Shown: positions 32,346-48,167 of the stretch, in pieces
Layout of the letters: each line of letters opens with the position of its first letter
Position numbering within the stretch: position 1 is the first letter of the stretch
DNA from: an uncultured Verrucomicrobia subdivision 3 bacterium
GTDB lineage: Bacteria; Verrucomicrobiota; Verrucomicrobiia; Limisphaerales; UBA11358
DNA length: 64,000 bases
Direction of reading: 5' to 3'
NCBI GenBank assembly: GCA_903870815.1
Contig: CAIQEI010000111.1
Coordinates: forward strand, 28 to 64,027
Made by a program: the position numbers and the translations under genes
The notes under the pieces: generated by a model
Told to the model about the DNA's origin: nothing
The model's database searches: none
What the model saw: the letters and a program-made list of their open reading frames with translations, nothing else

Positions 32346-35300
32346 GTGAAAATCAAACTTCCCCTCCTCACCCTTGCTGCCGCCCTGTTGTTGGCGGACG
32401 CCGGTTCGGCTGTCAGCCAGACCTCGCTGTCCATCAGCAATAATTCATTTGAACTCCCTGCGTCCGGCGGTCAGCAAATTTACATTTCCGGCACCGGGGC
32501 AACCTCCACTTTCGTGAATGGTTGGACCACTGCTACCACTGCCGGCTATTGGGACCTGCAGTACACCAACAATACCGCCGGCGTAACGAATAAAGATGGC
32601 TTGCAATTACTCGAGTCCTACGATGTGGGAGGGGGTCTTGCCGGTGTTGTTTACCAGGAATTGACCAACAAGTGGGTGGCGGGTGCCACCTACACACTCA
32701 CCGCCCGGGCGGGACAGGCCCCCGGGTCTGGTAATACCCCGAATACGGGTGACACCTTTTCGATTGACGCCAACAATGGCGGCACGCTTACCCAATTGAG
32801 TTCCACCACCATAGCCAATACCAAGGTTGGATTGCTCAATTACACGGTCACCTATACCGCGACCGGCAGTGAGCCTGGTGATGGACATGTTGTGGTTGCT
32901 TTCCATGTCCCCAGTCAGGCGAACACGGGCGGGATGTGGATTGATGATTTCGCCCTTACCTCTGCCCTGACACCGGATCCCTCTGTTACCACCCCCGCTT
33001 CGCAGACAGAACAGCCCGGCCAGACGGCTACGTTTAGTGTGACTGCTATTGGAACAGCGCCGTTGAGCTACCAGTGGCAGGCGACGAACAGCGCTGGTGG
33101 CGGATTTACGAATTTGCTGAATGGCGGCCCGTTTTCGGGGGCCAACACCAACGTGCTGACGATTTCCAATGTGTCCAGCAACAATCCGCTGCTGTATCAG
33201 GTGATTGTGACGAACGGTCTCGGTGCCTCCGTCACCAGCAGCGTGGCCAGATTGTCGTTGGTTGCGCCGGTTCTCATTGATGTCGACATCAACACCGGGA
33301 GCACGCCCACGCAAACCGGCGCGGCGGTTTTTGGCACTGCGGGTGATACCTGGAACGGCGTCACCGGTAACACCGGCAATCTTAAGGGTTCTGGCAATAA
33401 CACCTTGTCCGGCGTCGGGTTCTTCATTTCAGGCAACACCGGCCTCAATGACAACACCGGTGGCGTCGCACTCATGGATGCGGCCACCACGCCCTTGATG
33501 CGGGATACCGCCTATGGTGGTCCCAGCGTCACCTTCACAACCGGCATCAACGGGCTAAACAGTTATTTAAATCTTCCATTTACCTTGGTGGTTTATGCTA
33601 GCATCGGTGATACCAACCAGGGTGCCAAGCTGAACCTGGCGGGGGCCACGGGTGGAAATTCGGCCAGCCAATTGACCACCACCGGATACTCTCGATCGCT
33701 CACCAATACGCCTCCGGTCGGCGGGCTGGGCGCTGCCTACCAGACGTTCACGGGCATTATCACCAATAGCACGCTGACGATCACCTGCGCCAACGACCTC
33801 AGTAGCTATAGCGGCGTGAATGGCTTCCAACTTCAGATTCAAGTTCCGAATCCGGGGATTACGACCCAGCCGGTTTCGCAGACGGATCCGGCGGGAACCA
33901 CGGTGGTATTCAGCGTGGTGCCTTCAGGGAACTCTCCTTTTGGTTATCAATGGCAGGCCAACGGCGGCACGGGCTATACCAACTTGAGCGACGGCGGGCA
34001 GCTTGCGGGTTCTTCAAGCAACGTCCTGACCTTGGCCGGCATCACGACCAACCAGGCGCTGGCCTATCAGGTGATTGTGACCAACAGCAGCGGCTCAGTC
34101 ACCAGTTCCCCGGCCAGCCTGACGGTGCTTACCGTTCCGGTCATCACGACCCAGCCGGTGTCGCAAACGACCATCGCCGGCGGTCAGGTGTTGTTCAGTG
34201 TGGCCGCCGTGGGGGCGGTGCCATTGAATTACCAATGGCAGGCGACCAACAGCGCCACGGGCGGCTTCACCAACCTCGCCGATGGCGGCCCGATTGTGGG
34301 GTCGCAAAGCAATCTCCTGACCCTGACCGGCGTAAGCACAAATTGGCCTTTGGCCTATCAGGTGATTGTGGCCAATAGTTATGGTTCCGTCACGAGCAGC
34401 GTGGCGAATCTTACCGTGCTGCCCTTCGTAGCGCCGCCCGTCGTACCCAACCCGGGAGCAATGGGGCCGTCGCTGGCGGCCAATGTTTCAGGAAATTGCT
34501 CCGCGCCGCCGCCGAATCTGGTCTCCTCCAAGGTGACCGGCGGGCTTGTGGCCGGCAACGGTGACCTGGGCATCACGGTGGGCGGGCCTTCGTCCGCGTT
34601 GAAATTTTACGTGGGCAAGGCGGATTTCTTCGGCGTGTTGCGCGGGGCAATCACGCCGGTGGGTTCGCTGACCCTAAGCGCGCCCGCTTTGAATGGCAGT
34701 TCGTATTCGCTGAATGAAAACATCGGGTCAGCCACTCTGACGGGCGCATTTGCGAATGGGGCCTCCAGTTTGACGGTGACTTCCTGGGTGGCGGCGGCGG
34801 AGAACACGGCCGTGATCCAGTTGAACAACAGCGGATCGCAACCGCTGGCCCTGACCAGCCAGTTGCTGGACGGTCTGGCCTTGAGTGCCGGTAATCCGGC
34901 GACCTACGGTTCCACGAACAACTCGACTTGGCTGTACGTGTCGCCGGATACGGTGTATGTCGAACTGGGTAACCAATTGCACAACAATCTGGGCACGGCG
35001 CCATTCACCGGGAAGATCGCCGACTTCCGGCTGTTCACCCAGGCGTTATCGGGCGCGACGTTGGCGGCGTTGGACAATGTGGGTGCGCCGACACCGTTGC
35101 TGCGCTGGTCACCGACGAACTCGGGGACGGCGACGCTGGTGGGGAATGCGAGCCTGAACGGTGGGGATCCGCATGGCGGGTCGGTGTCGGTGAACGGCGG
35201 GTCGGACGAGGTGGCGGTGGGGGACATGCCGCTGCCGGAGAACCAGTTCACCTTCTCCACTTGGATCAACGTGGCGAGCACGGGCGTGAACGGGAACATT

Positions 35301-38300
35301 GTGACCGCGCAGATTCCCTTTGCTCCATTGTATGGCTATCCATATCCCTATCCGCGCGGCTTGACCTTGAGATTGGTGAACGGGGCGTTGAGCGCCTCAC
35401 TGAACCAGAGCGGCGTTTATATGATCCATAGCGGCGCTGATACCCAGGGCAACGATCAGTTCAATGCCGACGCCGTGAACAAATTCGCGACTACGGCCGG
35501 CAGTCCGATTCCGGCCAACCAGTGGGTGCAGGCCGCAGTGACGTATGACGGCAATGTGTTGAGGATTTATACGAATGGCGTCCAGGTGGGAGTCACGGCG
35601 CCCTTTCCCACCGGCATAAACGGGATGCTGGGTTGGAACAAATTGGCGGTCCATATCGGTGACACGAATGTACCTTACAACGGATGCGCGCCGCAGGCCG
35701 TGCTGGTGCAAAATATTTTAGGCGCCACGACCACGACGAATAGTCAGGGCGCGCTGGCGTTCATGATCTCGGCAGGCGGGCAGGTGACGATCGCTTTGGC
35801 GGCGGTCACGGACCGGAACAAAACGAATTATTTTGCGGCGGCGCAGCAGCAGACGCAGGCGGCCACAACCGGTTCCTTGAGCAATTTGTTTTTGGCGCAC
35901 AACGCGTGGTGGAGCAACTTTTGGACGAAGTCGTTCGTGCAGATCCCGAATCAACGGATTCAGGACAGTTGGTATGCGTCGCTCTATCTGCTGGCCTGCT
36001 GTAGCGTTTCCAACGCGCCCGCGCCGGGTTTGTGGGGCAATTTCGTTACGGCCACCACACCGGAATGGTTGGGCGACTACACGCTCAACTACAACTACCA
36101 ATCGCCATTTCTTGGAGCGTTGGCGTGTAATCACACAGAATTGGCCGAGAATTATGACCAACCGTTGCTCGACCAGATGGGGCGTGGGCGTGCGGCGGCG
36201 CAGGATATTTTTGGGGGTAACAACAACGGCCTTTATTTCCTTTGCCACCTCATTCCTTTCCCGGGACCGAGTGATGATATTTTTGGTTTTGAAGGCATGA
36301 AATCCAGTTCTGTCTTTGCGGCGGTCGATTGTGTGACGCGCTGGCGCTACACGCGGGACCCGAACTACGCGTCGAAAATCTACCCGTTTCTTAAAGGCGT
36401 TGCCGATTTTTGGGACAACTATCTGGTGGACACCGGCGGTTACTATGTGGATTACAACGATTCCTGGAGTGAATTTACCGGCAATGACACCAATCCAGCC
36501 ATGACGCTGGCCTTCATCCGGCACGTCTATCCGTCGCTGGTGGAGATCTCCCAACTATTGAACCAAGATGCCGGTCGCCGGGCGAAATGGAACGACATCA
36601 TTGCGCGGTTGTCGCCATTGCCGATCGTGCCAGCCAGCAGTATTGCCAGCTTGAACGCATTAGGCGCTCCTTACAACGCGCCCGGCGTCAATGTCATCCG
36701 CGCCACCTCATCTGGCGGAGCCTTTTACCCTAATCCTGCGGTTACATTATATCAGGATCATGCTATACGCGGAAACGTTGGTCAGGGTCCAATGACGGCC
36801 ATCTATCCGGGCTGGAACATCGGGCTGGAAAGCGATCCCTACACATTGCAAGCCGCATACAACACTGTCTGGCTCACGGGCTCTTGGTTTGATTACAATG
36901 CCAATAACTTTTCTTACCCCAGCGCGGCTTGCGTGGGTTTCGACCCCATTCAAATCCTGACAAACCTTGATACGTTACTGGCGCTCTACCGCAACAGTAA
37001 TTTCATGATTGATGTCGGCGGTGGCGGGACGGAACAATTTTCCGTCGTGCCCGGCACGTTGGCCGCGATGTTTGTGCAGAGCTACCAGACGAACATTCAC
37101 GTGTTTCCCAACTGGCCTACAAACCAGTCGGCCACCTTCGGCAATCTGAATGCCTGCGGCGGGTTCTTGGTGTCTGGGGCGATCACGTTGGGGTCAGCGA
37201 ATTACCTCCAGATCCAAAGCACCGCCGGGCAAATGCTCAAGCTGGTCAATCCCTGGCCGGGCGCAGCCGTGCAATGCGTCTCGAGTCTGACTGGCATCAG
37301 CACTCTGTCTGGGACAGTTCTCTATTATCAAACCCAGGTGGGCGAAGTGCTGACCTTGACGTCTACTTTGGCCACGAACCTGCCGGCACCTGCGAACCTG
37401 ACGGCCAGCCTGAGCGGCGGTTCAGCATTGCTGACGTGGAATGGCGTGCCGGGGGCGGGCGGTTACAACGTGAAACGGGCGACCAGCATTGGCGGCCCTT
37501 ATTTGAACGTGACCAGCGGGATCACGGCTACCAATTTCAACGATGGCAGTCTGACGGGACACACGACTTATTATTATGCGGTCACGGCATTGGCACCGGG
37601 TTTTGAGAGCACCAACTCTGCCGTGGTTACGGTCGCGCCGCCGGTCATCGCCAACGGGTCGTTCGAGGCCAACAACGTGCCGATTCCCCCTGGCTATGAA
37701 ACGAGTGCCTTCCCGACCAGTTGGAGTTCGGCCAATGCTTCTGGTCCCGTGATTACCGCAGTCGTCACACCTTATTCAGGTGATGGCCGGTTCGCTTCGT
37801 ATCCCGTCCCCGGCATGGATGGCACCAATTATTGCCAGATTTTTATGAACGGTGGTAGTGGTGGAGAAATGATTTACCAAGACTTGGGCGCGGCCAATAA
37901 ATATCAGGCTGGCACAACTTACACGTTGACGGCAGCGTTCGGGCTGGAGCGGGGGATTTTCCCGACGGGGACGCTGGTGCTGTGCAATTCGGCGCTGACG
38001 CCCATCGCCACGAAGACCATCACCTCGGCGATGCTCAACTCGAACGCATTCACCAGCTATAGCGTGACCTACACGGCGACGGGCAGTGAAGGGGGCAACG
38101 GGGACATCGTGGTCGGGTTCAGCACCACCGGCGCGGCTGCCGGTAACTCCTTCGATGTGGACAACGTGCGCCTGACCGCGCTCGCTCCGGTCAGCACCAA
38201 TGCGTATTTGACCTCACTGGTTTTGAATCCGGCGGGAGCCTTGACGCCTGCCTTTGCCTCCAACGTGCTGAGCTACGTAGCGACCGAGGCGTATGGCAGC

Positions 38301-38747
38301 AGCCCCACCGTGACGGTGGTCAATGCCAATGGGAACGCGACAAATCAATTGGTCTACAACGGCGTGACGAACGTGTTGGCTTCCGGGGTGGCCAGTGCCG
38401 CCTTGACCTTGAACCCGAATCCGCCGGTGACGAACGTGGTGCAGGTTCAGGTGACGGCTCAGAATGGGGTGACGATGCAGACCTACACGGTGAACGTGAC
38501 CCGATTGCCGAACCAGGCAACCCAGCCGAATCTAACCAATAGCGTAACGGGCGGGACATTGAACTTGAGCTGGGGATCGGATCGAATGGGCTACCGATTG
38601 CTGGTTCAGACCAATAACCTGAACCAGGGGGTGAGCAGCAACCCGAACGATTGGGCGACCGTGATCGGTTCGACCGCGACCAATGCGTTGGCCATTCCCA
38701 TCGTCACGACCAACTTTGATGAATATTACCGGCTGGTATATCCCTGA
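32346..38747 (+). CDS. Giant secreted multidomain protein 1 (2133 aa). Order: signal peptide, DUF642-like CBM, Ig-like, unknown X module, 2 Ig-like, GH95-like core with inserted LamG, FN3, DUF642-like CBM, cadherin-like beta-sandwich, 79-aa C-terminal domain
   Basis: Signal MKIKLPLLTLAAALLLADAGSA. NNSFELP..IDDFAL module. Ig-like repeats with YQWQA..YQVIVTN. GH95-like GNGDLG N-domain and GLWGNF..W.GDYTLNYNYQSPF. LamG FTFSTWIN..WVQAAVTYDGNVLRIYTNG. FN3 LTWNGVPGAGGYNVKR..TYYYAVTA. The uninterrupted 6.4-kb frame has protein-like composition. Confidence 0.85.
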   Translation: MKIKLPLLTLAAALLLADAGSAVSQTSLSISNNSFELPASGGQQIYISGTGATSTFVNGWTTATTAGYWDLQYTNNTAGVTNKDGLQLLESYDVGGGLAGVVYQELTNKWVAGATYTLTARAGQAPGSGNTPNTGDTFSIDANNGGTLTQLSSTTIANTKVGLLNYTVTYTATGSEPGDGHVVVAFHVPSQANTGGMWIDDFALTSALTPDPSVTTPASQTEQPGQTATFSVTAIGTAPLSYQWQATNSAGGGFTNLLNGGPFSGANTNVLTISNVSSNNPLLYQVIVTNGLGASVTSSVARLSLVAPVLIDVDINTGSTPTQTGAAVFGTAGDTWNGVTGNTGNLKGSGNNTLSGVGFFISGNTGLNDNTGGVALMDAATTPLMRDTAYGGPSVTFTTGINGLNSYLNLPFTLVVYASIGDTNQGAKLNLAGATGGNSASQLTTTGYSRSLTNTPPVGGLGAAYQTFTGIITNSTLTITCANDLSSYSGVNGFQLQIQVPNPGITTQPVSQTDPAGTTVVFSVVPSGNSPFGYQWQANGGTGYTNLSDGGQLAGSSSNVLTLAGITTNQALAYQVIVTNSSGSVTSSPASLTVLTVPVITTQPVSQTTIAGGQVLFSVAAVGAVPLNYQWQATNSATGGFTNLADGGPIVGSQSNLLTLTGVSTNWPLAYQVIVANSYGSVTSSVANLTVLPFVAPPVVPNPGAMGPSLAANVSGNCSAPPPNLVSSKVTGGLVAGNGDLGITVGGPSSALKFYVGKADFFGVLRGAITPVGSLTLSAPALNGSSYSLNENIGSATLTGAFANGASSLTVTSWVAAAENTAVIQLNNSGSQPLALTSQLLDGLALSAGNPATYGSTNNSTWLYVSPDTVYVELGNQLHNNLGTAPFTGKIADFRLFTQALSGATLAALDNVGAPTPLLRWSPTNSGTATLVGNASLNGGDPHGGSVSVNGGSDEVAVGDMPLPENQFTFSTWINVASTGVNGNIVTAQIPFAPLYGYPYPYPRGLTLRLVNGALSASLNQSGVYMIHSGADTQGNDQFNADAVNKFATTAGSPIPANQWVQAAVTYDGNVLRIYTNGVQVGVTAPFPTGINGMLGWNKLAVHIGDTNVPYNGCAPQAVLVQNILGATTTTNSQGALAFMISAGGQVTIALAAVTDRNKTNYFAAAQQQTQAATTGSLSNLFLAHNAWWSNFWTKSFVQIPNQRIQDSWYASLYLLACCSVSNAPAPGLWGNFVTATTPEWLGDYTLNYNYQSPFLGALACNHTELAENYDQPLLDQMGRGRAAAQDIFGGNNNGLYFLCHLIPFPGPSDDIFGFEGMKSSSVFAAVDCVTRWRYTRDPNYASKIYPFLKGVADFWDNYLVDTGGYYVDYNDSWSEFTGNDTNPAMTLAFIRHVYPSLVEISQLLNQDAGRRAKWNDIIARLSPLPIVPASSIASLNALGAPYNAPGVNVIRATSSGGAFYPNPAVTLYQDHAIRGNVGQGPMTAIYPGWNIGLESDPYTLQAAYNTVWLTGSWFDYNANNFSYPSAACVGFDPIQILTNLDTLLALYRNSNFMIDVGGGGTEQFSVVPGTLAAMFVQSYQTNIHVFPNWPTNQSATFGNLNACGGFLVSGAITLGSANYLQIQSTAGQMLKLVNPWPGAAVQCVSSLTGISTLSGTVLYYQTQVGEVLTLTSTLATNLPAPANLTASLSGGSALLTWNGVPGAGGYNVKRATSIGGPYLNVTSGITATNFNDGSLTGHTTYYYAVTALAPGFESTNSAVVTVAPPVIANGSFEANNVPIPPGYETSAFPTSWSSANASGPVITAVVTPYSGDGRFASYPVPGMDGTNYCQIFMNGGSGGEMIYQDLGAANKYQAGTTYTLTAAFGLERGIFPTGTLVLCNSALTPIATKTITSAMLNSNAFTSYSVTYTATGSEGGNGDIVVGFSTTGAAAGNSFDVDNVRLTALAPVSTNAYLTSLVLNPAGALTPAFASNVLSYVATEAYGSSPTVTVVNANGNATNQLVYNGVTNVLASGVASAALTLNPNPPVTNVVQVQVTAQNGVTMQTYTVNVTRLPNQATQPNLTNSVTGGTLNLSWGSDRMGYRLLVQTNNLNQGVSSNPNDWATVIGSTATNALAIPIVTTNFDEYYRLVYP
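38191..38747 (+). repeat. Copy 1 of the ~557-bp shared 3' module (cadherin-like domain plus C-terminal domain)
   Basis: Aligns by eye at the nucleotide level with 43135-43692 and 47611-48167. Confidence 0.85.
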
Positions 38748-38871: not shown

Positions 38872-41800
38872 ATGAACGATAGAAACCGTCGGGTGTTTGT
38901 TGACCCAGTAATTCATCCATTAATGGACTCATTCATGATCTGTGCTTGTAATCTTCCGCCTGGACGCCACATTCGAATCGTTCGAACCATCGTTGCTTCA
39001 GCAATTTTGTGGATGGGCTTGACGGCGGCATTCGCGTTTACGCCTTACACTACGAACCAGTTGGTGTTCGTTAACGTGGATCATGCGCCGGTGGGGGCGC
39101 TCTCGACATTTGCCTATGGTTATAAGGGTGCGAACTGTGGTCTGGGCATGTCCAGCGCGGCCATTCCCTATAGCGCCGGCGGGGGCGGCGTGATTGTGGC
39201 CTTGTCCGGAAATTCGGGTTTGCAGGCACTGCCGTTTGTCGCGTCCCCCGCGAGCATCGGCTCCAGTGCCACTTTCTTTGCCGACGCCAATGTCCAGCGG
39301 AATCTGACCCCCTGCACCGACCAGTGGAATGTGCCCGCCGCCGGCTTGTCCTTTACGCATTTCACTCCGGCTTGGTCTATGCCGGACATCAATACGGCGA
39401 GCCAGACCGAAAAAAAACGGTTCTTCCTGCCGGCGACCTGGATGACTTTCATCGTCACCAACAATACCGGCGCTGCCGAGGATTTTTATTTCGGTCTGCC
39501 GGCGGCGGCGACGCCGACAAGCTTCGCCAATGGTGCCTATCAGGGTTTTGCCCTCGGCGAGGCGGCCTTGGCTGTGCCGGCCGGCAGTTGCGATTTGTTG
39601 ACTGGCAGCAGCCTGACGGCGGTGTTGAACGGGGTCACCAGCGGTTTCGCCTTTCACCTCGGCGTGCCGGCGGGTCAGACCAGGTCGCTCACCGTCGTGG
39701 TCGCCTACTATCGCAGCACCGCCGTGGATACGCGAATTAACGCCGCCTATTATTACACGAAGCTGTTCAGTTCGAGGGATGATGTGATTGATGGCGCGTT
39801 CGCGGAATTCCCCGATGCCCGGGCTCGCTGTTTGCAATTGGCTAATGCTCTGCAAAATGCCGGCCTCAACCCCTACCGCCAGTTTCTTGCCAGCGACGCG
39901 CTGCACAGTTACCAGTGTAACGTCGCGTGCCTGGTGGACCCCGGCAACGGCGTCTATTGGCGGGAAGTCGAAGGCGCTTACGGGAACATAAACACCTGTG
40001 ACCTGATGGTGGATCACGCTTTCTATGAAGTGATGATGCATCCGTGGGCGTTGCGCAACGTGCTGGATGCGTTTTCCGGCGCGTCGAATGCCGGCATTGG
40101 GTACACGTTCACCCATCCGCTTTACAATGAGACCACGGGCAGCCAGGTGTCCGCCAACGGCTTTTCCTTCCAGCACGAGATGGGTGGCAATACCAGCAAC
40201 GGCCAGGTTTCCAACGATCCCACCACTGACCCGACCGAATACGAAACCGTGTTTTCCTACATGGGGCAGGAGGAACTGGACAATTGGATCACCTGCGCCG
40301 GACTTTATTGGACGCATACGGGCGATAACGCCTGGCTCACCAACAATGCCGCCTTGCTGCGGTCGTGCCTGAATTCCCAACTGTTGCGGGACGACACCAA
40401 TTCTGCGGCTCGCGATGGCGTCACGACGTATGTCAACTACTCGACTCAATCCGGTAAATACGAGATAACCACCTACGATTCGCTGGATCCCTCGCTCCAG
40501 GATCCCCGTGGCGGCGCCTACACCGCCATGAAAAACTGGGCGGCTTACCTTGCGCTTCAGGCCATGTTCAACCAGTTGGGTGACACCGCCGATGCTTTAA
40601 TTTCCAGCAATCAGGCGGTGGTGTGTTCTCATTCGATCACGAATGGATGGAATGCCACGCTCGGTTTCGTTCCGGCGTCGTTGACCGGCGCCAACCCGTC
40701 GGCGACGCTCCCCATTCTGGAGGGGCTGGCTTTGGCGCAGTGGATGGGTTTCACCAACGCCACCGACCGGCAGGCTGGTCCTTATGCCGCCATGCTGCAG
40801 ACGCTGCGCAATCATGCGCTCGCGGTGCTGGTGCCAGGCAAATGTCTGGATGCGACCAGCGGCGGTTTGAAGATCACCAGCGCCAACGACAATACCTTTC
40901 CGAGCAAAGTGTTTATCGCCCAATACGCCGCCGAGACGGTGCTGGGTCTGACCGGCAACTCGGTGGATGGAACCGTGGACCAGGTGAATGCCACTTTCCA
41001 AATGCAGCAAGCCCCCTGGCAGGGGTTGTCAGATCAGATCAACACCCCCGGCGGCACCACGCCCGCGAACTCGAGCCTGCATTATCCCCGCGGCATCACC
41101 AGTGCGCTCTGGTGGTTGACGCCCACCAACAACCCGGCCTATCCGCTTCCGGCTTCCGCGCCATCATCTCCCACCGGCCTGACCGCTCTTGCTGGCAACG
41201 GCCAGGTGGTGTTGGTCTGGAATGCCTCGGCGCAAGCCGCGGGCTATAATGTCAAGCGCGGAACGTCCAGCGGCGGGCCCTACTTTCCGGTGGCGGCCTC
41301 TGTCAACGGGGTCAGTTACACCGACCTAGGCGGCGCCAACGGCGCCACTTATTATTATGTTGTTACCGCCACCAACCAGATTGGCGAAAGTTTGCCTTCC
41401 GCTGAAGCCAGCGTGACTCTGGTTCCGGTTTTGGAGCAGTTGAATATCCAAAATAATTCCTTCGAGGCCCAGAGTGTGAACGCCGGCACCTATGTGGTTG
41501 AGAATCCGACTGGCTGGAGTGTATCCGGGCCGTCGCTTGGGGTGGTGGCGCTCGTGCATCCCAATGCGACCGATGGCCGGGGCTTTGGCAGCATTCCCGT
41601 TTCCAGCCTGAATGGCAGCAATTATTGTCAGATTTACAGCACCGGCAATAACGACAGCGGTATCGTCTATCAGGACACGGGATTCAAGTATCGGGCGGGC
41701 ATGACCTACACGTTGACGGCGGCTTTCGGCCGGGAAAACAACCCATTCCCCGGGGGCTCGCTGGTTTTTTATAACTCTGCGCTCGTCGCCATCGCCTCCA

Positions 41801-43692
41801 ACCAAATCAGCTCCGCCAATCTCACTTTGGGTTCGTTCAAGGATTTCAGTGTCACCTATAGTGGTACTGGCAGCGAGGGTGGCAACGGCGATATCGTCGT
41901 CGGTTTCAACCTCGTAGGCGCCGCCTCGGGCAGCGCTTTTGACTTCGACAACGTGCGCCTGGTCTCCCCGCCCGTCATTACGGGCCAGCCGGTTTCCCAA
42001 ACGATCGCGGCCGGTGGCAGCGTTTCGTTCAGAATCGGGGCATCGGGAACGGCGTCGTTGAGCTGCCGCTGGCAGGCCGGTCCGCTGGGTGGACCCTATA
42101 CCAACTTGCTCAATGGCGGCCAGATTTCAGGAGCCAATTCCAATGTCCTTACTCTTACCGGCGTGAACACCAATTGGGCGCTGGCTTATCAGGTGATCGT
42201 GACCAACAGTTATGGCTCCGTCACCAGCACGCCGCCCGCGACCTTGACTGTATTGGACCTCCCGATCATCACCGTTTCGCCTGCCTCCCAAGTTGTCGTC
42301 GCCGGCAGCTCGGTTTCATTTGGGGTCAACGCTTCGGGAACCGGACCGTTCGGCTATCAGTGGCAGGCTAATGGCGGGACAGGTTTCACCAATTTATTGA
42401 ACGGCGGCTTGGTCTCGGGTGCGAACAGCAACGTCCTGTCTATTGCCAGCGTGACGACCAACTGGGCTTTGGCCTACCAGGTGATCGTCACCAACTACTT
42501 CGGAGTTGTCACCAGCAGTCCGGCGGCGATGCTGACGGTAACGACGGTCAGCCAGACAATCAACCTGCTGATTGATGTCAACTTTGTCACCTCCGGTGCC
42601 ACCACGCAAACGGGGGCGGCGGTGCTCGGTTTCTCGAATGATGTTTGGAACGCTCTCAGTGCCTCGACCAGTAGCATCACCAACAGCGCCGGCAGCCTTC
42701 TGGGCGGAGTCGGATTGACTTTGAGCAACCAGGGGGTTTTTAAAAACTCCGGTGGTACCGCCATGGATGCCGCCACCACGCCCTTGATGCAGGATTATGC
42801 CTATGGCACCACCGCCCCGGCCTCGGTCACCGTGAGTCTCACCGGGCTGGTGCCCTACACGAACTGTGCTTTTACCCTCGTGGTCTATGGTGCGGGGGAC
42901 ACGAGTGGGCAGGGGACTGCGCTCCGGCTCACCGGCGGCGCCACGGGCGGGAATACGGCCGGCAACCTGACCACCAGCGCCGCCTCGCGGCAGATTTCAG
43001 CGGGGATTGGCATCGCCTACCAGACCTTCACGGGCACTCTGACCAATGGCACCCTGACCTTTGTCGCCACCAACAACGGGTCAATCTACACCATCGTGAA
43101 CGGGTTCCAGCTTCAGTTTGTACCACCGCCGACGGTCAGCAGCAATGCCTGGCTGACGTCGCTGGCTTTGAGCCCGGCTGGCATCCCGTCCCCGGCCTTT
43201 GCCTCCAACACGTTCGTGTATTTTGACACGACCACTTACGGAGCCACGCCTGTCGTGACGGTCACCAACGCCGACCTGACCGCGACCAACCAGTTGATTT
43301 TCAACGGCACGACCAATTTGCTCGTATCGGGTGTGGCGAGCGCTGCCCTGGCCCTGAACCCGAATTTAGGAGTGACGAACGTCGTTCAGGTGCAGGTGAC
43401 GGCGCAGAACGGTGTGACGATGCAGACCTACACGGTGAACTTGACCCAATTGCCGAATCAGGCAACCCAGCCTGTTTTGATGAACAGCATGAGCAATGGG
43501 ATGTTAAATTTGAGTTGGGGACTGGATCGGCTGGGCTACCGGTTGATAATGCAAGCTAACAATCTAAACCTGGGCGTTAGCAGCAACCCGAACGATTGGG
43601 CGACTGTGTCCGGTTCGACCGTGATCAACGCGTTGGCCATTCCCATCGTCACGACCAACTTGGATAAGTATTACCGGCTGATTTATCCGTGA
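38872..43692 (+). CDS. Giant secreted multidomain protein 2 (1606 aa). Order: signal peptide, GH52-like domain, FN3, DUF642-like CBM, 2 Ig-like, X module, cadherin-like beta-sandwich, C-terminal domain
   Basis: GH52-like blocks recalled from Geobacillus XynB2: NVDHAPVGALSTFAYG, EGAYGNINTCDLMVDHAFYEVMMHPWALRNVLDAF, GFSFQHEMG, EITTYDSLDPSL, HYPRGITSALWWL. FN3 VLVWNASAQAAGYNVKR. The start may be ATG 38935 (MICAC..), which gives a normal-length signal peptide. Confidence 0.85.
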   Translation: MNDRNRRVFVDPVIHPLMDSFMICACNLPPGRHIRIVRTIVASAILWMGLTAAFAFTPYTTNQLVFVNVDHAPVGALSTFAYGYKGANCGLGMSSAAIPYSAGGGGVIVALSGNSGLQALPFVASPASIGSSATFFADANVQRNLTPCTDQWNVPAAGLSFTHFTPAWSMPDINTASQTEKKRFFLPATWMTFIVTNNTGAAEDFYFGLPAAATPTSFANGAYQGFALGEAALAVPAGSCDLLTGSSLTAVLNGVTSGFAFHLGVPAGQTRSLTVVVAYYRSTAVDTRINAAYYYTKLFSSRDDVIDGAFAEFPDARARCLQLANALQNAGLNPYRQFLASDALHSYQCNVACLVDPGNGVYWREVEGAYGNINTCDLMVDHAFYEVMMHPWALRNVLDAFSGASNAGIGYTFTHPLYNETTGSQVSANGFSFQHEMGGNTSNGQVSNDPTTDPTEYETVFSYMGQEELDNWITCAGLYWTHTGDNAWLTNNAALLRSCLNSQLLRDDTNSAARDGVTTYVNYSTQSGKYEITTYDSLDPSLQDPRGGAYTAMKNWAAYLALQAMFNQLGDTADALISSNQAVVCSHSITNGWNATLGFVPASLTGANPSATLPILEGLALAQWMGFTNATDRQAGPYAAMLQTLRNHALAVLVPGKCLDATSGGLKITSANDNTFPSKVFIAQYAAETVLGLTGNSVDGTVDQVNATFQMQQAPWQGLSDQINTPGGTTPANSSLHYPRGITSALWWLTPTNNPAYPLPASAPSSPTGLTALAGNGQVVLVWNASAQAAGYNVKRGTSSGGPYFPVAASVNGVSYTDLGGANGATYYYVVTATNQIGESLPSAEASVTLVPVLEQLNIQNNSFEAQSVNAGTYVVENPTGWSVSGPSLGVVALVHPNATDGRGFGSIPVSSLNGSNYCQIYSTGNNDSGIVYQDTGFKYRAGMTYTLTAAFGRENNPFPGGSLVFYNSALVAIASNQISSANLTLGSFKDFSVTYSGTGSEGGNGDIVVGFNLVGAASGSAFDFDNVRLVSPPVITGQPVSQTIAAGGSVSFRIGASGTASLSCRWQAGPLGGPYTNLLNGGQISGANSNVLTLTGVNTNWALAYQVIVTNSYGSVTSTPPATLTVLDLPIITVSPASQVVVAGSSVSFGVNASGTGPFGYQWQANGGTGFTNLLNGGLVSGANSNVLSIASVTTNWALAYQVIVTNYFGVVTSSPAAMLTVTTVSQTINLLIDVNFVTSGATTQTGAAVLGFSNDVWNALSASTSSITNSAGSLLGGVGLTLSNQGVFKNSGGTAMDAATTPLMQDYAYGTTAPASVTVSLTGLVPYTNCAFTLVVYGAGDTSGQGTALRLTGGATGGNTAGNLTTSAASRQISAGIGIAYQTFTGTLTNGTLTFVATNNGSIYTIVNGFQLQFVPPPTVSSNAWLTSLALSPAGIPSPAFASNTFVYFDTTTYGATPVVTVTNADLTATNQLIFNGTTNLLVSGVASAALALNPNLGVTNVVQVQVTAQNGVTMQTYTVNLTQLPNQATQPVLMNSMSNGMLNLSWGLDRLGYRLIMQANNLNLGVSSNPNDWATVSGSTVINALAIPIVTTNLDKYYRLIYP
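43135..43692 (+). repeat. Copy 2 of the shared 3' module
   Basis: The stretch beginning aatgcctggctgacgtcgctgg differs from copy 3 at 6 of 84 positions counted by eye. Confidence 0.85.
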
Positions 43693-43769: not shown

Positions 43770-46700
43770 ATGCCCGCCATTGTCTCCTTTAAAATTCTGT
43801 ATCAGTCGGCTCTCGCAATTGTAATCGGCAGCATGTTGGCCTCGCCTGTCCTGGCCGCAAACTTGATCTCCAACGGCACGTTTGAGACTCCCAATGTCGG
43901 CGCCGGCAATTACCCGCAATACGCCTCTGGCAGTACCGCCATAACGGGCTGGACGGTGGATTCCACGCCTGCGGACGGGGTTTCGCTCATGGCGAGCGGG
44001 GTCATTACCGTCAACGATGGCACCCAGATCCTGCAACTGACGGGTGGCGCTGGTAATGTCTATTCCGCTGGGGGTGGTATCCATCAAACCATCACCACCA
44101 CGTCGAACCAGGTCTACAACCTCAGCATTGATGTCGCCTCGCGCCAAAACAATTCCGTCACCGGCAAGTTCAGTTTCGGTGGGCAAAACCATGCCCTCAC
44201 CGTCAGCAGCGCCACCTTTACTACCCTGACGTGGACGGTCACGGCGACGAATACCAATCCGGTGATTGATATCACCGGCAGTTCTTCCTCGAGCAGCGCC
44301 CAATTGATCATTGATAATGTGAGCGTGACGGTGCCGGCGGGGCCGGTGAATGCCGGAACTTCAACCGTTGCGGTGGCCCCAAACTCAATCCCGGCAGACG
44401 GTTCGACCACTTCCACTATCACGGTCAGCTTACAGGATGCCGGCGGCAATCCGGTCCCCGGCAAGACCGTCACCCTGGCTTCCAGCCGGGGAGCCGCCGA
44501 TACAATATCGGCGTCGTCGGGAGCTTCCAGTGCCTCGGGGACGGTGACCTTTACTGTGCGATCCTCCACGACCGGTACGGCGGTTTTTAGTGCCACCGAT
44601 GCAACCGACAGTCTTCCCTTAACTCAAACCGCCGCCGTGTTCGTGTATGCCGTCGGTTCAAAAGGTCCGCAGGCATCGCCCGTCCCCATCGTGTTCGACC
44701 AGACCGCCACGAACGACAACTTGATCGTCCTGATGGCCGCCGCCTCCGAATACAGTTCCAATCTAACCTTGTATCAAGACGGGCCCTCGGCGTATCCAAA
44801 ACATTTCTGGATCAATAATTGGAGCAATGGCACCAATGACTACTTCAAGTGGAACGTGGCGCTGGCCACTGGCGCGGTTTATCACGTGTATGCCAAGCTC
44901 AGCGCCGGGGCGACCGTGCCGGTCCAGTTGAGCATCACAGGCACCAACACGGTGCTGAATTTCACGACGCGCCCCATCGGTTGGGACAAGCTGGATTGCG
45001 GCACCATCAGCCTTCCGGCCGGCACGAAACAGTTGGTGCTGCGGAAAAACACCACCGATACTACGCAGGTCATTTCCATCAAATCCCTGGAACTGATCCG
45101 GCAATCCGACCTGCCGGCCTATCAGCAGCGCGTGGCCAGTTTCCGGGCCGATACGACTTGGATGAGCCAGGCCAAGTATGGCTTGATGACCCAGTTCGGT
45201 CCGTGGGGCTATCCCCCCACCGGACCGCAACCGTCCTTGCAGAACATGGCCAATGGCTTCAGTGTGAGCAATTTTGTCAATCTGGTCACGAACACCGGTT
45301 GCAAATACGTCATCTTTTCGCTGACGTGGTGGAACTATCAGATGCTGGCCCCCATTCAAGCCGTGACCAACATTGTTCCGGGCAACCCCAACCTCACCTC
45401 GACGCGGGACGTGATCGGGGAACTTTCCACTGCTCTGCATGTCGCCGGTGTCCGGTTCACACTGTATTATCATTGTGGCTCGGATAGTCAGAGTCCCGGT
45501 GGCTATGGCAGCACGCCTTGGTGGCAGGCGCAACAGTTTCCCGAGCCGGGCTATACGGAGCGGGGAGTCGCAGATCGGAGCATCTTCTTCACCAATTGGT
45601 TCAATGTGATCTCCGATATCGGGAACCGTTACGGTACCAATCTGGACGGCTGGTTCATTGACGATGGTCTCGTGTATTACCCGGCGCCTTTCGAGCATTT
45701 GGGCCAGGCCGCCCGGGCGGGGAACCCCAACCGGCTGCTGTGCTATAATTCCTGGATTGCCACCGAATATACCGATTTTCAGGATGTGTTTATGGGCGAA
45801 AATTCGCAGGGTCAGAGCCAGTTTGGTAGCGCTCCCAACGGCGGTAATGGGGTTTTTACTGATGGGCCGCAGGTCGGGTTGTTGCAGCACGGGATGTTCA
45901 CGATGGAACAGGATTGGGGGATACACCAGGCGAACCAGCCGATCACCACCCAGATTACCGCCAGTCAGGCCATCGGGTGGGTGCAAAGCGCTAGCGCGCT
46001 CGGCGTGCCGCTTTCGTTTAACATGATGCTGTGGTCAGACATGACCTACTCGACTAATTCCTTGAACGTGTTGTTGAACCTGAAAAGCGCCATCTATGGC
46101 GGCAGTAGTGCCAGTTTATCAACTAATAATCTGGTGGTGAATGGCACCTTTGAATCCCCGACCGTTGCCTCCGGCGCCACCTTGCTTTCAGCCGGCAGCA
46201 CCGCCTTGACCGGTTGGACGGTGGATACCACGCCTTCGGACGGGATCCAGTTTGGCGCCGCGGGTACCTTCGGCCCCAACAACGGCTCTCAGAACGTGCA
46301 ACTCTCGGGTGGCAGCACCTATGCAGTGGGGGGCGGAATTTCGCAGACGATTGCCACGATCCCGGGCGCAACCTACACCATCATCATTGACGTCGCTTCC
46401 CGCCAGGGTAATGCCATCGCCGGTAATTTCAGTTTTGGCGTCAGTAACTACGTCCTCAACGCCAGTAGTGCGTTTTTCACGACCCTGACCTGGAAAGTCG
46501 TCGCCACTGGATCCAATACGCTCATCAATATCACGGGCTGTACCAACTCGGTCGGCAGTCAACTGCTGATTGATAACGTGAGTGTGACGCTGTTTTCAGA
46601 TCCAAACTTTAAGACCCAGCCCGGATCGCAAACGACCACCATTGGCGGCACGGCATCGTTCAGTGTGACTGCTGGGGGGACCGCCCCCTTCAGTTATCAA

Positions 46701-48167
46701 TGGCAGGCGACGAACAGCGCCAGCGGCGGCTTCACCAACCTGATGAACGGCGGCAATATTTCAGGCGTGACCAGCAACGTCCTGACCATCGCTTATGTGG
46801 CGGCTAATTCGCCGCTGGCCTATCAGGTGATTGTGACCAACAGTGTCGGTGCCATCACCAGCAGCGTGGCCGCTCTGATAATTCTGCCCTCCAGTTTCCT
46901 AGTGAATGTTCAGTATCTCGGCAGCCCCAACAACCCGGACAACCCAACCAATGCTTTTAGCGGGACCAGCGGGACTTGGGTCGGCCCGGGCACCGCGTAT
47001 TCCGGGTCGGCGGTTTTGGGTTCTCCGGGCGACACTTGGAACCAGGAACCGATTGGGTATTATAATTTTTCCGGAAATGGAGCACCGAACCCCATCATCA
47101 GCGGGGCAACTCTGGTTAATTCCGCCAACAGCGCGAGCGGCCTCACGCTCACCCTGGGTTACCAGAGCATCATTCAGGGCGCCGCCCTGGCCGGCACGGC
47201 CACGGATGCCGCCACCACCAATTTGATGCAATCCTCGATTTTCATCTACACCTGGTCCGGCGGATCCGGCGCCGGCAATGCTCAGACCACGCACACCATC
47301 GGCGGCTTGTCCGGCTATGCCGGATCCAAGGCCAGTCTGGTCGTCTATGCCGGGGCCCCCAGCGCCCGGCCCGAACAAATCGCCATCACGGGGGGGGCCT
47401 CGGGCGGAAACTCGGGCACCACCCTGACCACCAGCTCCGCTTCGCGCTCGATTAGCGCCGGGGCCGGGGTGGCCTGCCAGATCTTCACGAACCTCACCCT
47501 CACCGGCAGCAATCTGGTTTTTACCGTCAACGAGACCGGTTCGGCGGTGGGTGCAAATGCGGGTTATGTGAATGGTTTTCAACTGCAGGTGAGCGCCCCG
47601 ACCCCGCCCGCCAGCACCAATGCCTGGCTGACGTCGCTGGCCTTGAGCCCGGCTGGCATCCTGTCCCCGGCCTTTGCCTCGAACACATTCGTGTATTATG
47701 CCACAAACGCCTACGGCTCCACCCCTTCCGTGACGGTTAGCAACGCTGACCTGACCGCGACCAACCAGTTGATTTACAACGGCACGACCAATTTGCTCGC
47801 GTCGGGCGTGGCGAGTGCTGCCTTGGTCTTGAATCCGAATCCGGGTGTGACGAACGTGGTGCAGGTGCAGGTTACGGCCCAGGACGGGGTGACCGCGAAA
47901 ACCTACACCGTGAACGTGACCCAGTTGCCAAATCAATCAGCCCAGCCCAGCCTGACGAACAGCTTGAGTAACGGAATGTTGAATTTGACTTGGGGTATGG
48001 ATCGTTTGGGCTACCGGTTGTTGATGCAGACCAACAACCTGAACCTGGGCTTGAGCACCGATCAAAATGACTGGGTGACCGTAACCGGTTCGACCGTGAC
48101 AAACATGATGGCCATCCCCATCGTCACGACCAACTTGAATGAATATTACCGTCTGGTTTATCCGTGA
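43770..48167 (+). CDS. Giant secreted multidomain protein 3 (1465 aa). Order: signal peptide, DUF642-like CBM, Big_1 Ig-like, CBM-like, divergent GH29-like TIM barrel, DUF642-like CBM, Ig-like, X module, cadherin-like beta-sandwich, C-terminal domain
   Basis: Signal ..IGSMLASPVLAANL. NGTFETP..ITGWTV..IDNVSV (DUF642 pattern, present twice). Big_1-like VAPNSIPADGSTTSTITVSLQDAGGNPVPGKTVTL. GH29-like AKYGLMTQFGPWGY..GCKYVIFS..RDVIGELSTALHVAGVRFTLYYH. Confidence 0.85.
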   Translation: MPAIVSFKILYQSALAIVIGSMLASPVLAANLISNGTFETPNVGAGNYPQYASGSTAITGWTVDSTPADGVSLMASGVITVNDGTQILQLTGGAGNVYSAGGGIHQTITTTSNQVYNLSIDVASRQNNSVTGKFSFGGQNHALTVSSATFTTLTWTVTATNTNPVIDITGSSSSSSAQLIIDNVSVTVPAGPVNAGTSTVAVAPNSIPADGSTTSTITVSLQDAGGNPVPGKTVTLASSRGAADTISASSGASSASGTVTFTVRSSTTGTAVFSATDATDSLPLTQTAAVFVYAVGSKGPQASPVPIVFDQTATNDNLIVLMAAASEYSSNLTLYQDGPSAYPKHFWINNWSNGTNDYFKWNVALATGAVYHVYAKLSAGATVPVQLSITGTNTVLNFTTRPIGWDKLDCGTISLPAGTKQLVLRKNTTDTTQVISIKSLELIRQSDLPAYQQRVASFRADTTWMSQAKYGLMTQFGPWGYPPTGPQPSLQNMANGFSVSNFVNLVTNTGCKYVIFSLTWWNYQMLAPIQAVTNIVPGNPNLTSTRDVIGELSTALHVAGVRFTLYYHCGSDSQSPGGYGSTPWWQAQQFPEPGYTERGVADRSIFFTNWFNVISDIGNRYGTNLDGWFIDDGLVYYPAPFEHLGQAARAGNPNRLLCYNSWIATEYTDFQDVFMGENSQGQSQFGSAPNGGNGVFTDGPQVGLLQHGMFTMEQDWGIHQANQPITTQITASQAIGWVQSASALGVPLSFNMMLWSDMTYSTNSLNVLLNLKSAIYGGSSASLSTNNLVVNGTFESPTVASGATLLSAGSTALTGWTVDTTPSDGIQFGAAGTFGPNNGSQNVQLSGGSTYAVGGGISQTIATIPGATYTIIIDVASRQGNAIAGNFSFGVSNYVLNASSAFFTTLTWKVVATGSNTLINITGCTNSVGSQLLIDNVSVTLFSDPNFKTQPGSQTTTIGGTASFSVTAGGTAPFSYQWQATNSASGGFTNLMNGGNISGVTSNVLTIAYVAANSPLAYQVIVTNSVGAITSSVAALIILPSSFLVNVQYLGSPNNPDNPTNAFSGTSGTWVGPGTAYSGSAVLGSPGDTWNQEPIGYYNFSGNGAPNPIISGATLVNSANSASGLTLTLGYQSIIQGAALAGTATDAATTNLMQSSIFIYTWSGGSGAGNAQTTHTIGGLSGYAGSKASLVVYAGAPSARPEQIAITGGASGGNSGTTLTTSSASRSISAGAGVACQIFTNLTLTGSNLVFTVNETGSAVGANAGYVNGFQLQVSAPTPPASTNAWLTSLALSPAGILSPAFASNTFVYYATNAYGSTPSVTVSNADLTATNQLIYNGTTNLLASGVASAALVLNPNPGVTNVVQVQVTAQDGVTAKTYTVNVTQLPNQSAQPSLTNSLSNGMLNLTWGMDRLGYRLLMQTNNLNLGLSTDQNDWVTVTGSTVTNMMAIPIVTTNLNEYYRLVYP
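47611..48167 (+). repeat. Copy 3 of the shared 3' module
   Basis: Same as copies 1 and 2. All three end with the identical-length 240-nt segment encoding PNQ..YYRL(V/I)YP plus the stop. Confidence 0.85.

Follow-up and report, generated by a model that had tools for sequence, protein, structure and literature searches.

Three consecutive giant open reading frames (ORFs) of an uncultured Verrucomicrobia subdivision 3 bacterium, located in a 64,000-nucleotide stretch of DNA (the window), raise the question of whether their products form a cellulosome-like complex, act as adhesins, are neighbours by chance, or constitute a set of self-contained secreted enzymes. The ORF coordinates agreed with the initial sequence-only reading of three ORFs on one strand:

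32346..38747, + strand: P1, 2133 aa, GTG start
38872..43692, + strand: P2, 1606 aa
43770..48167, + strand: P3, 1465 aa

The P1/P2 and P2/P3 gaps are short and lie within the same strand. No terminator-like site was seen in these two gaps, in a promoter/terminator scan that performed no better than chance. The locus is probably a co-transcribed tandem set of three autonomous secreted exo-glycosidases.

Catalytic heads of the three proteins

P1 is composed of the following modules, in order:

32346..32411, + strand: signal peptide, aa 1-22, hydrophobic core LPLLTLAAALLL, hydropathy 2.48
32424..32963, + strand: jelly-roll a, aa 27-206, 31% identity to the P2 jelly-roll and P1 jelly-roll b
32964..34424, + strand: three Ig modules (I-set/Ig_3), aa 207-307, 502-596 and 597-693, with X between the first and second (Pfam Ig_3 6e-17, I-set 2e-12)
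33267..33848, + strand: X module, aa 308-501, 47% identity to P2 X
34425..37382, + strand: GH95/GH139-fold catalytic unit with LamG insertion, aa 694-1679
37383..37643, + strand: FN3, aa 1680-1766
37644..38180, + strand: HpiC1-like jelly-roll b, aa 1767-1945 (PF22825 E 7.5e-9), 53% identity to the P2 module
38181..38507, + strand: cadherin-like beta-sandwich (Cad), aa 1946-2054 (PF12733 8.5e-6), 71-76% identity to P2 and P3
38508..38744, + strand: C-terminal domain (CTD), 79 aa, C-terminal YYRLVYP

The P1 catalytic unit was recognised from Pfam, 45 homologues, a GH95 structure profile and AF2/Foldseek, and consists of an N-terminal beta-sandwich, the LamG insertion (aa 950-1089), an (alpha/alpha)6 domain and a C-terminal beta-sandwich. 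GH95_cat matched with an E value of 4e-21 over profile positions 61-287 of 408 only, together with a LamG_3 insertion, and the AF2 model of the core gave GH139 and GH95 as its best PDB matches (~1e-22, Foldseek). The catalytic blueprint of the GH95/GH139 fold has been described (PMC12282258). In P1, the candidate residues are N1250 (base), E1376 (acid), E1563 (activator) and N1248, and across the 45 homologues the columns that match the base, acid and activator of GH95 hold invariant N, E and E. The identity of P1 to any characterised enzyme is 10-14% at most, the P1 family consensus has Asp where the GH95 N-x-N motif has its first Asn, and Glu takes the place of Asp as activator; the P1 substrate is therefore a guess. 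P1 is most likely an inverting GH95/GH139-fold enzyme acting on alpha-L-fucoside-type sugars.

P2 carries a signal peptide only when translation starts at an internal codon (Met18 or Met22), whereas the signal peptides expected for P1 and P3 were present. The remaining P2 modules follow in order:

39037..41160, + strand: GH52 catalytic unit, aa 56-763 (PDB 8qme, 4rhh, 4c1o)
41161..43128, + strand: FN3 (aa 764-852), HpiC1-like jelly-roll (853-1032), Ig (1033-1129), Ig (1130-1225), X (1226-1419)
43129..43689, + strand: Cad (aa 1420-1527) and CTD (aa 1528-1606)

The Pfam GH52 match had an E value of 1.4e-50, and the three structures aligned over their full length at E 3e-75. The putative nucleophile E367 (nt 39970) corresponds to E335, the residue replaced by Gly in the 4rhh mutant, and the putative acid/base D536 (nt 40477) aligns with D495. 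P2 is thus predicted to be a retaining GH52 beta-xylosidase, having the nucleophile Glu and acid/base Asp in common with the Geobacillus XynB2-type enzymes represented by these structures, but adding a signal peptide and ~840 aa of FN3, jelly-roll, Ig, X, Cad and CTD. Characterised GH52 enzymes are, to our knowledge, single-module intracellular proteins of ~700 aa that degrade xylooligosaccharides; an extracellular GH52 role would therefore be without precedent.

In P3, the signal peptide is followed, in order, by:

43857..44651, + strand: DUF642/choice-of-anchor-C module a (aa 30-189) and Big_1 (aa 190-294) (Pfam DUF642 1.6e-12, Big_1 3.8e-14)
44652..46103, + strand: catalytic unit, with the CBM6-like module U (aa 295-447) and a GH29-related TIM barrel (aa 448-778)
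46104..47600, + strand: DUF642 b (aa 779-942), Ig (943-1040), X of the long subtype (1041-1277)
47601..48164, + strand: Cad (aa 1278-1386) and CTD (aa 1387-1465)

The P3 core scored 25.0 bits against Pfam Alpha_L_fucos (cut-off 25.2). The P3 family profile matched 9pnj, a structure labelled 'alpha-L-fucosidase', with an E value of 2e-45 and with both U and the barrel covered, and 131 homologues span U and the core jointly, indicating that U belongs to the catalytic unit. D336, E347 and E382 are invariant in the homologue alignment. The candidate nucleophile D631 (nt 45660) is invariant and aligned to the AlfC nucleophile D200. The candidate acid/base E677 (nt 45798) was assigned by invariance and spacing only; it does not align to the acid/base of AlfC, and 9pnj has Asp in its place. 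P3 is accordingly classed here, by profile and alignment, as a putative GH29-related 9pnj-type alpha-L-fucosidase.

Pfam and structure matches bore out the proposal of GH95-like, GH52-like and GH29-like cores, and with candidate residues conserved in each, all three cores look catalytically competent. Since the cores have unrelated folds, the description of the proteins as paralogous holds for their accessory modules only.

Accessory modules and the C-terminal tail

Between P1, P2 and P3, identities are 71-84% for Cad, 71-77% for CTD and 33-47% for X, and the six Ig copies share 49-68%; the shared-module BLAST E values (1e-12 to 1e-50) are far beyond chance. No copies of these modules were found outside P1-P3 within the window. 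Ig, X, Cad and CTD recur in all three proteins, and the CTD is 79 aa long in each, as first read. DUF642, in contrast, was matched only by the two jelly-rolls of P3 (for module a, TIGR04362 gave 82 bits, under its cut-off). The C-terminal jelly-roll of P1 and that of P2 matched the HpiC1-like family, a remote relation of DUF642 (hhalign E 8e-5, probability 61%), and P1 jelly-roll a had no Pfam match and no family. P2, for which the cassette order DUF642-Ig-X-cadherin-CTD had been proposed as for P3, has an HpiC1-like jelly-roll and two Ig modules. FN3 is carried by P1 and P2, and Big_1 and U by P3. X and CTD had no relatives in Pfam, NCBIfam or PDB. The N-terminal half of X gave a poor AF2 model, and the AF2 model of P2 Cad-CTD showed two beta-sandwiches with pLDDT above 90.

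Among cluster representatives at 50% identity, the CTD search returned 4,830 matches, for which ...YRLVYP is the usual ending. The CTD formed the C-terminal end in 123/129 and 93/94 matches, with LVYP as the usual ending, and the named proteins with Cad-CTD came from Verrucomicrobiota MAGs. Cad-CTD is a lineage-wide, strictly C-terminal cassette; the survey across relatives that had been suggested found the tail on thousands of large secreted proteins, so that it is not special to this locus. Moreover, because 18/30 full-length Cad-CTD members were PATR adhesin-like proteins, with esterases and lyases also present, the tail is not CAZyme-specific. The tails of P1-P3 contain no Cys and no C-terminal TM segment, and no known sorting signal was found in the three proteins. 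From its position and distribution, the shared tail could be a signal for export or anchoring that has not been described before.

The prevalence of PATR adhesin-like cargo would also fit giant surface adhesins whose cores bind carbohydrate but are catalytically inactive, as would a relative (L015) with no recognisable catalytic domain and the P3 score just under the GH29 cut-off. However, each of the three cores has its catalytic residues, which do not vary within the respective family, and P1 keeps the acid Glu, without which a GH139 member was inactive (PMC12282258). We consider the adhesin explanation extremely unlikely.

The same modules bear on the cellulosome-like system originally envisaged, in which X, Cad or CTD would serve as cohesin/dockerin-type connectors at the cell surface. 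X and CTD are indeed common to three adjacent genes and lack known relatives. However, no cohesin, dockerin or scaffoldin-like protein was found in P1-P3 or the neighbours examined, each protein is self-contained, Cad-CTD is mostly borne by PATR adhesin-like proteins that occur singly, and X is missing from the majority of proteins with a CTD. Furthermore, related arrays carry 1 to 3 X modules per protein, N- or C-terminal of the head, and this free variation in number and position fits a binding or spacer role better than a connector. Such a complex is very unlikely.

Neighbouring genes and related arrays

The following genes flank the array:

29718..32276, - strand: GH141-like right-handed beta-helix with C-terminal PDZ, 852 aa, divergent upstream (Pfam Beta_helix, PDZ_2)
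48297..48668, - strand: prepilin-type N-methyl protein, 123 aa (pilin or pseudopilin); the N-terminal methylation domain alone passes the cut-off
50245..52071, - strand: canonical GH29 alpha-L-fucosidase with F5/8 type C (Pfam Alpha_L_fucos 7e-65)
52102..53792, - strand: NarL/LuxR-type response regulator and HisKA_3 histidine kinase

The GH141-like gene matched BT_1002 (GH141, E 2.3e-24) and 9rx2 (E 2e-26) in the PDB. Together with P1-P3 and the GH29 gene, it makes five fucosidase/xylosidase-type genes in ~22 kb, and the suggested fucose/xylose theme fits both the cores and these flanking genes. The GH29, two-component and pseudopilin-like genes had been described as converging on the system. 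They are present, but the flanking CAZyme and regulator genes, like the pseudopilin-like gene, were not found beside any related array examined, and thus nothing so far ties them to it.

The same kit recurs in related metagenome loci, where its heads are GH43, SASA and GDSL and the genes often stand in tandem. In the close relative L007, the P1 upstream region and N-terminus are kept, no GH52 gene is present, the breakpoint falling within the Cad-CTD repeat (the switch lies at P2 Cad-CTD), and a P2-type tail bears a SASA/GH43 head. Recombination within this repeat has deleted or inserted the body of the GH52 gene. The L007 arrangement, the different head combinations of other arrays and the non-conserved flanking genes would also be expected if independent genes had been gathered by a recombination hotspot of Cad-CTD, Ig and X repeats. 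However, the P1-P3 heads and both flanking CAZyme genes are members of fucosidase- or xylosidase-type families, the gaps are short and same-strand, and the P2-tail-to-P3 junction is kept at 83% in L011. Chance assembly is therefore an unlikely explanation.

Overall, we regard it as likely that P1-P3 are tandem secreted exo-glycosidases with swappable heads and a shared kit and tail. Each combines a predicted Sec signal peptide, one catalytic head, modules from a lineage-specific kit of CBM-like jelly-rolls (DUF642 or HpiC1-like), I-set Ig spacers, FN3 and beta-rich X, and the Cad-CTD tail. The proteins would be exported and would bind a decorated glycan through the jelly-rolls and perhaps X, with Ig, FN3 and Cad as spacers, while the CTD would direct outer-membrane export or cell-surface retention; P1-P3 may thereby be displayed on the cell surface. 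With the GH141-like and GH29 enzymes, they would remove L-fucose-type and beta-xylose end groups from a complex polysaccharide of plant, algal or microbial origin that is probably acetylated. The repeated tails would act as recombination substrates by which the lineage swaps catalytic heads.

Comparison with known systems

No published description of the P1-P3 architecture was found, consistent with the early impression that it was undescribed. In the rhamnogalacturonan-II degradome of Bacteroides thetaiotaomicron, which includes GH95, GH139 BT0984 and GH141 BT1002, the GH95/GH139-fold and GH141 enzymes remove L-fucose, L-galactose or 2-O-methyl-fucose (PMC12282258). P1 resembles GH139/GH95 and the upstream gene resembles BT1002, with the Asn and Glu positions kept. 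In contrast to the giant multimodular P1-P3, the degradome enzymes are single-domain, periplasmic or surface proteins of a SusC/D-type PUL; GH52 and 9pnj-type GH29 are absent from it, and identity to P1 is 10-14%.

As in the cellulosomes of Clostridia, different GH heads encoded side by side share non-catalytic modules, whereas P1-P3 lack dockerin, cohesin and scaffoldin, carry their own CBM-like modules and are apparently autonomous. The CelA-type CAZymes of Caldicellulosiruptor are multifunctional and multimodular. They show similar head swapping among paralogues with near-identical linker and CBM cassettes in recombination-shaped tandem clusters, but use CBM3 and GH9/GH48 modules in a Gram-positive host and have no conserved terminal tail.

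The T9SS-CTD CAZymes of Bacteroidota reportedly include the cellulases of 'Ca. Paraporphyromonas polyenzymogenes' and Flavobacterium johnsoniae ChiA. Like P1-P3, they are large and secreted and have an N-terminal signal peptide, one or more GH heads, and CBM and Ig/FN3 spacers; a beta-sandwich of ~80 aa lies strictly at the C-terminus and recurs on many unrelated cargoes, adhesins included. However, none of the T9SS CTD models (TIGR04183 and related) was matched by the CTD of P1-P3, a cadherin-like domain almost always precedes that CTD, and we know of no T9SS in Verrucomicrobiota. P1-P3 can be regarded as multimodular secreted CAZymes whose tail is possibly a new sorting domain.

Three tandem genes and their common module kit

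The ORF scan recovered three consecutive genes on one strand, with exactly the coordinates and lengths assigned to them by the sequence-only reading:

32346-38747, + strand: P1, giant predicted secreted protein of 2133 aa with a GTG start
38872-43692, + strand: P2, giant predicted secreted protein of 1606 aa
43770-48167, + strand: P3, giant predicted secreted protein of 1465 aa

The genes are separated by 124 nt (P1/P2) and 77 nt (P2/P3); a terminator-like site was absent from both gaps, and the whole promoter/terminator scan did not exceed shuffled expectation. The signal peptide proposed for each protein was clearly predicted (Sec type) for P1 and P3, whereas for P2 this depends on a start at Met18 or Met22. 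Translation from the first P2 ATG (38872-38934) would put 17-21 extra residues before these two starts, from which a normal signal peptide would result. A library entry with the same module map as P2 (P0353, 1559 aa) begins with MGLTAAFAF, corresponding to P2 Met48, a start that would abolish the signal peptide. Long antisense ORFs (345-483 aa) were also observed within the three genes (38998-40449, 44763-45986 and 46899-47936, all on the − strand); they are most likely artefacts of coding sequence with ~58% GC and not genes.

Pfam searches matched GH95_cat (4e-21, partial), LamG_3, three Ig domains and Cadherin-like in P1; GH52 (1.4e-50), two Ig domains and Cadherin-like in P2; and two DUF642, Big_1, a borderline Alpha_L_fucos, Ig and Cadherin-like in P3. 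FN3 is additionally present in P1 and P2. All-against-all BLAST of hand-cut modules, the boundaries of which were refined later, bore out the proposed accessory kit common to all three proteins. In this comparison, identity was 71-84% among copies of the cadherin-like beta-sandwich (Cad), 71-77% among copies of the C-terminal domain (CTD), which measures exactly 79 aa in each protein, 49-68% among the six Ig copies, and 33-47% among copies of X, a module without family assignment. DUF642-like carbohydrate-binding modules had been expected in all three proteins; Pfam/NCBIfam place those of P3 in the DUF642 / choice-of-anchor-C subtype, whereas jelly-roll modules of the HpiC1-like subtype are present in P1 and P2, and the two subtypes show only remote kinship (hhalign E 8e-5). 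No further copies of the kit modules were found elsewhere in the 64-kb window. The tail DNA of the three genes is 69-85% identical, indicating that the tails are not very recent duplicates.

X has thousands of copies in metagenomes. Fifteen copies searched against Pfam gave no match, the X profile found no relative in the PDB, and hhalign did not match X to the jelly-roll modules. When X-Cad-CTD was modelled with AF2, pLDDT stayed below 50 across the N-terminal half of X.

Catalytic cores of P1, P2 and P3

The GH52-like core ascribed to P2 was upheld in full. P2 scored 173 bits against PF03512 (GH52; cut-off 25) and aligned with the GH52 beta-xylosidase structure PDB 8qme over the whole catalytic unit (E 3e-75, query 10-693, chain 5-701). 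In the alignment, E367 falls on E335, the nucleophile of XynB2-type enzymes that is replaced by Gly in the mutant structure 4rhh, while D536 falls on their acid/base D495. P2 is a full-length GH52 homologue that keeps both catalytic residues, and to our knowledge its predicted extracellular format is without precedent for GH52.

For P1, the match to the GH95 catalytic domain (PF22124) was above cut-off at 75.8 bits but covered only profile positions 61-287 of 408. A profile of the P1 family aligned to GH95 structures in three separate pieces: one in the N-terminal sandwich, one in the (alpha/alpha)6 domain and one in the 'MLLQS' region at the C-terminal end. The AF2 model of the core (pLDDT 74.5, pTM 0.73) was closest by Foldseek to GH139 and GH95 structures (~1e-22, 10-14% identity), followed by GH65 phosphorylases; the best match was GH139 9hmb (1.5e-22, 13% identity). 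Membership of P1 in GH139 was rejected: DUF5703_N reached 21.9 bits against a cut-off of 26.7, over its last 50 profile positions only, and 13% identity to 9hmb denotes the same fold in a different family. The 45 homologues of the core (28-83% identity) come from Verrucomicrobiota, Phycisphaerae and Acidobacteriota MAGs, and all combine LamG_3 with GH95_cat, while their accessory modules vary. As judged by sequence, the P1 core is a member of this conserved, uncharacterised family.

GH95 and GH139 enzymes share a catalytic blueprint in which Asn acts as base, Glu as acid and Asp as activator (PMC12282258). By alignment, P1 N1250 corresponds to the base N423 of AfcA and E1376 to its acid E566, both invariant in the P1 family. 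The position of the AfcA activator D766 is occupied in the alignment by an invariant Glu (E1563 in P1), and that of the helper N421 by Asn in P1 and Asp in the family consensus. The P1 core, GH95-like in the sequence-only reading, may represent a GH95 subfamily or a new family.

The Alpha_L_fucos match of P3, at 25.0 bits, fell just below the gathering score of 25.2 and spanned profile positions 90-211 of 345. The core and the CBM6-like domain that precedes it constitute one conserved two-domain unit with 131 homologues in many phyla, usually annotated as alpha-L-fucosidase or GH29, and many precomputed as PF01120. P3 as a single sequence matched PDB 9pnj, a structure named 'alpha-L-fucosidase', with E 3e-17, and the family profile matched it with E 2.2e-45, covering beta-sandwich and barrel end to end (profile 42-492, chain 40-521); our literature search found no paper on that structure. 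In the alignment with AlfC, the nucleophile D200 corresponds to the invariant D631, and the acid/base E274 to a Gln in P3. Another invariant residue, E677, lies 46 residues after D631 and corresponds to an Asp in 9pnj; it is the best acid/base candidate, although this assignment is not secure. The core described earlier as GH29-like is a putative GH29-related fucosidase unit of the 9pnj type with a candidate nucleophile.

Candidate catalytic residues are conserved in all three cores, which, as predicted from these residues, look like active enzymes. The locus offers three candidate enzymes in unusual formats: a multimodular GH52 protein (predicted to be extracellular), an uncharacterised GH95/GH139 relative that bears a LamG domain, and a fucosidase of the 9pnj type.

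The Cad-CTD tail and its recombination among relatives

P1, P2 and P3 all terminate in ...YYRL(V/I)YP. Their CTDs matched nothing in Pfam and NCBIfam even at E = 5, and the possibility that the CTD is a diverged FN3 copy was rejected (hhalign probability 1.7%). AF2 modelled Cad and CTD as a pair of soluble beta-sandwiches (pLDDT >90), for which Foldseek returned only generic Ig/FN3/cadherin tandems. X and the CTD are two conserved modules without known relatives.

A search with the Cad+CTD profile matched many metagenomic fragments. Among 129 matches collected, the CTD lay no more than three residues from the C-terminus in 123, 89 of them with an LVYP end. Against 1.84 billion cluster representatives, the CTD profile gave 4,830 matches at E ≤1e-3, some of which are multi-Cad repeat proteins drawn in through ~23 Cad-tail positions in the profile, and 1,906 at E ≤1e-10. 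Among 135 further matches listed, a near-complete CTD was situated exactly at the C-terminus in 93 and elsewhere in one; Cad directly preceded it in 86 of these 93, and just 14-18 also contained X or Ig. The full-length CTD proteins open with signal peptides. A Pfam census of 30 such proteins identified 18 as adhesin-like proteins with autotransporter-associated beta-strand repeats (PATR), and the others included SASA, GDSL, polysaccharide-lyase and pectate-lyase-like proteins. Few CTD proteins carry organism names, all from Verrucomicrobiota MAGs.

A conserved terminal domain of ~80 aa on otherwise unrelated large secreted proteins is the pattern expected of a sorting or anchoring signal, and we infer such a role for the CTD. 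Verrucomicrobiota are major degraders of fucose-rich complex glycans in freshwater, soil and peat, and most of them have not been cultured. A broader proposal, which we regard as speculative and on balance improbable, is that Cad-CTD (or the CTD) would be the recognition signal of an undescribed Verrucomicrobiota export or surface-attachment route with thousands of PATR proteins and multimodular CAZymes, including P1-P3, as cargo, and that the LamG-bearing P1 core and X would represent a new GH family and a new carbohydrate-binding family, respectively. If this were true, the CTD would be a functional counterpart of the C-terminal domain that marks T9SS cargo in Bacteroidota.

In related metagenome contigs these modules recur, differently ordered and in tandem genes. 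L012-14 has three CTD-terminated genes in succession, two with a GH95-like core; L017 is a 2972-aa protein combining a GH95-like core with a GDSL esterase; L022 has two GDSL esterases and one SASA esterase; and L021 is a PATR protein. L015, a family member of 2561 aa in which no catalytic domain was recognised, comprises only binding modules and ~320 residues without family; these residues (6695-7650, aa ~1-318 of the unassigned segment) were left after removal of CBM35-like and FN3 parts, at the place where relatives hold a catalytic head.

In the close relative L007 (core identity 83% for P1 and 96% for P3), the P3 ortholog comes immediately after the P1 ortholog. The tail in L007 resembles that of P1 until ~nt 5200 and that of P2 thereafter, and its post-stop intergenic region is 60-80% identical to the region downstream of P2, compared with 15-30% for that downstream of P1. 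The tail switch together with the P2-type downstream region marks this locus as the footprint of homologous recombination between Cad-CTD repeats, by which the GH52 gene body was lost there or gained in the lineage of the window. L007 also has a P2-type Ig-X-Cad-CTD tail (84% identity) whose head is SASA + GH43 and not GH52; gene borders in this contig are uncertain owing to many frameshifts, which are probably assembly errors. The colinearity of L011 with the window (83%) extends from the P2 tail through P3; reading L011 as P1 followed by P3 without GH52 was rejected, since its upstream fragment is P2-tail-like by DNA colinearity, and the absence of GH52 is seen in L007 only. The repeated tail probably acts as a recombination handle for swapping catalytic heads between close relatives, which would explain quick diversification of CAZyme arsenals.

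Also in L007, Cad and approximately the first half of a CTD (10303-10748) directly precede a GH43 domain inside one long reading frame. This looks like the remnant of a fusion that deleted the CTD end, the stop codon and the next signal peptide, in a contig rich in frameshifts.

Genomic surroundings and comparison with known systems

Two neighboring genes are described here individually:

29718-32276, − strand: GH141-like beta-helix gene, 852 aa, divergent from P1 (BT_1002, E 2e-24; 9rx2, E 2e-26)
49232-50233, − strand: 333-aa ORF between a pilin-like gene and a canonical GH29 gene, no match in Pfam, NCBIfam or PDB

BT1002 is the founding GH141 fucosidase. The 29718-32276 product has a C-terminal PDZ domain fused to its GH141-like right-handed beta-helix, which is unusual for a CAZyme. 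Downstream of P3 lie a pilin/pseudopilin-like gene, the 333-aa ORF, a canonical GH29 gene with F5/8C and a NarL-type two-component pair, so that the neighbors named by the sequence-only reading are present. Five fucosidase/xylosidase-type genes occur within ~22 kb, supporting a fucose/xylose theme, and the GH43 and acetyl-esterase heads in relatives point to removal of side chains from a decorated glycan that is acetylated. None of the window's flanking genes was seen beside the related arrays, within their short flanks.

Further away, a cluster at 54726-60893 (− strand) encodes an MlaD-domain (PqiB-like) protein, PqiA and a DUF3313 lipoprotein, together with a protein of 383 aa that weakly matches 'solitary outer-membrane autotransporter beta-barrel' (Omp_AT). 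This weakly matched stand-alone barrel is situated ~10 kb from the barrel-less CTD proteins P1-P3. At the window end, near the locus, lie IS elements in the form of two neighboring transposase ORFs of 347 and 627 aa with an integrase core (rve; 61026-63965, − strand). At 2685-4892 (+ strand) lies a squalene-hopene cyclase gene (E 1e-140) with S41 peptidase and TsaD genes upstream and a dihydroorotate dehydrogenase B pair downstream; this region is ordinary chromosomal context with no plasmid or island signature. The 64-kb window gave no rRNA, tRNA or Rfam match; its probable phylum, Verrucomicrobiota, was taken from homologues that carry names.

The suggestion of a cellulosome-like system was not borne out: P1-P3 and 30 neighboring ORFs contained no dockerin or cohesin Pfam match and no scaffoldin signature. 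The three CTDs gave no NCBIfam/Pfam match to the T9SS Por_Secre_tail or type A or B CTD up to E 5. Signals of PEP-CTERM, LPXTG or MYXO-CTERM type were absent from P1-P3 (hydropathy over 18 aa peaks at 1.2-1.45 within the final 120 aa); no hydrophobic segment is present in the tails, and the last 183 aa of each protein contain no Cys. Moreover, Pfam identified no classical autotransporter (T5SS) C-terminal beta-barrel in P1-P3, and no SusC/SusD pair was present among the ORFs scanned, which lay between 23 and 64 kb or were among the ten largest of the 0-23 kb part. Because the defining features tested were absent, the locus is not a cellulosome, T9SS, PEP-CTERM, classical autotransporter or Sus-type PUL system.

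T9SS CTDs are terminal signal domains on unrelated secreted cargo, and they are the obvious analogue of the CTD in its terminal position on unrelated large secreted proteins. The sequence-only reading was aware of no described system with such an architecture, and our literature search found none either; for a described Verrucomicrobial system, 9PNJ and DUF5703, it returned nothing relevant except the GH139 paper (PMC12282258). In its way of working, the locus comes closest to two known kinds of system: the secreted CAZymes of Bacteroidota, which are multimodular and bear a CTD, and the clusters of multifunctional CAZymes that recombine in Caldicellulosiruptor. In contrast to both, the present locus has a different tail without family assignment, the X module, a predicted extracellular GH52 format and an uncharacterised family with the GH95/GH139 fold.
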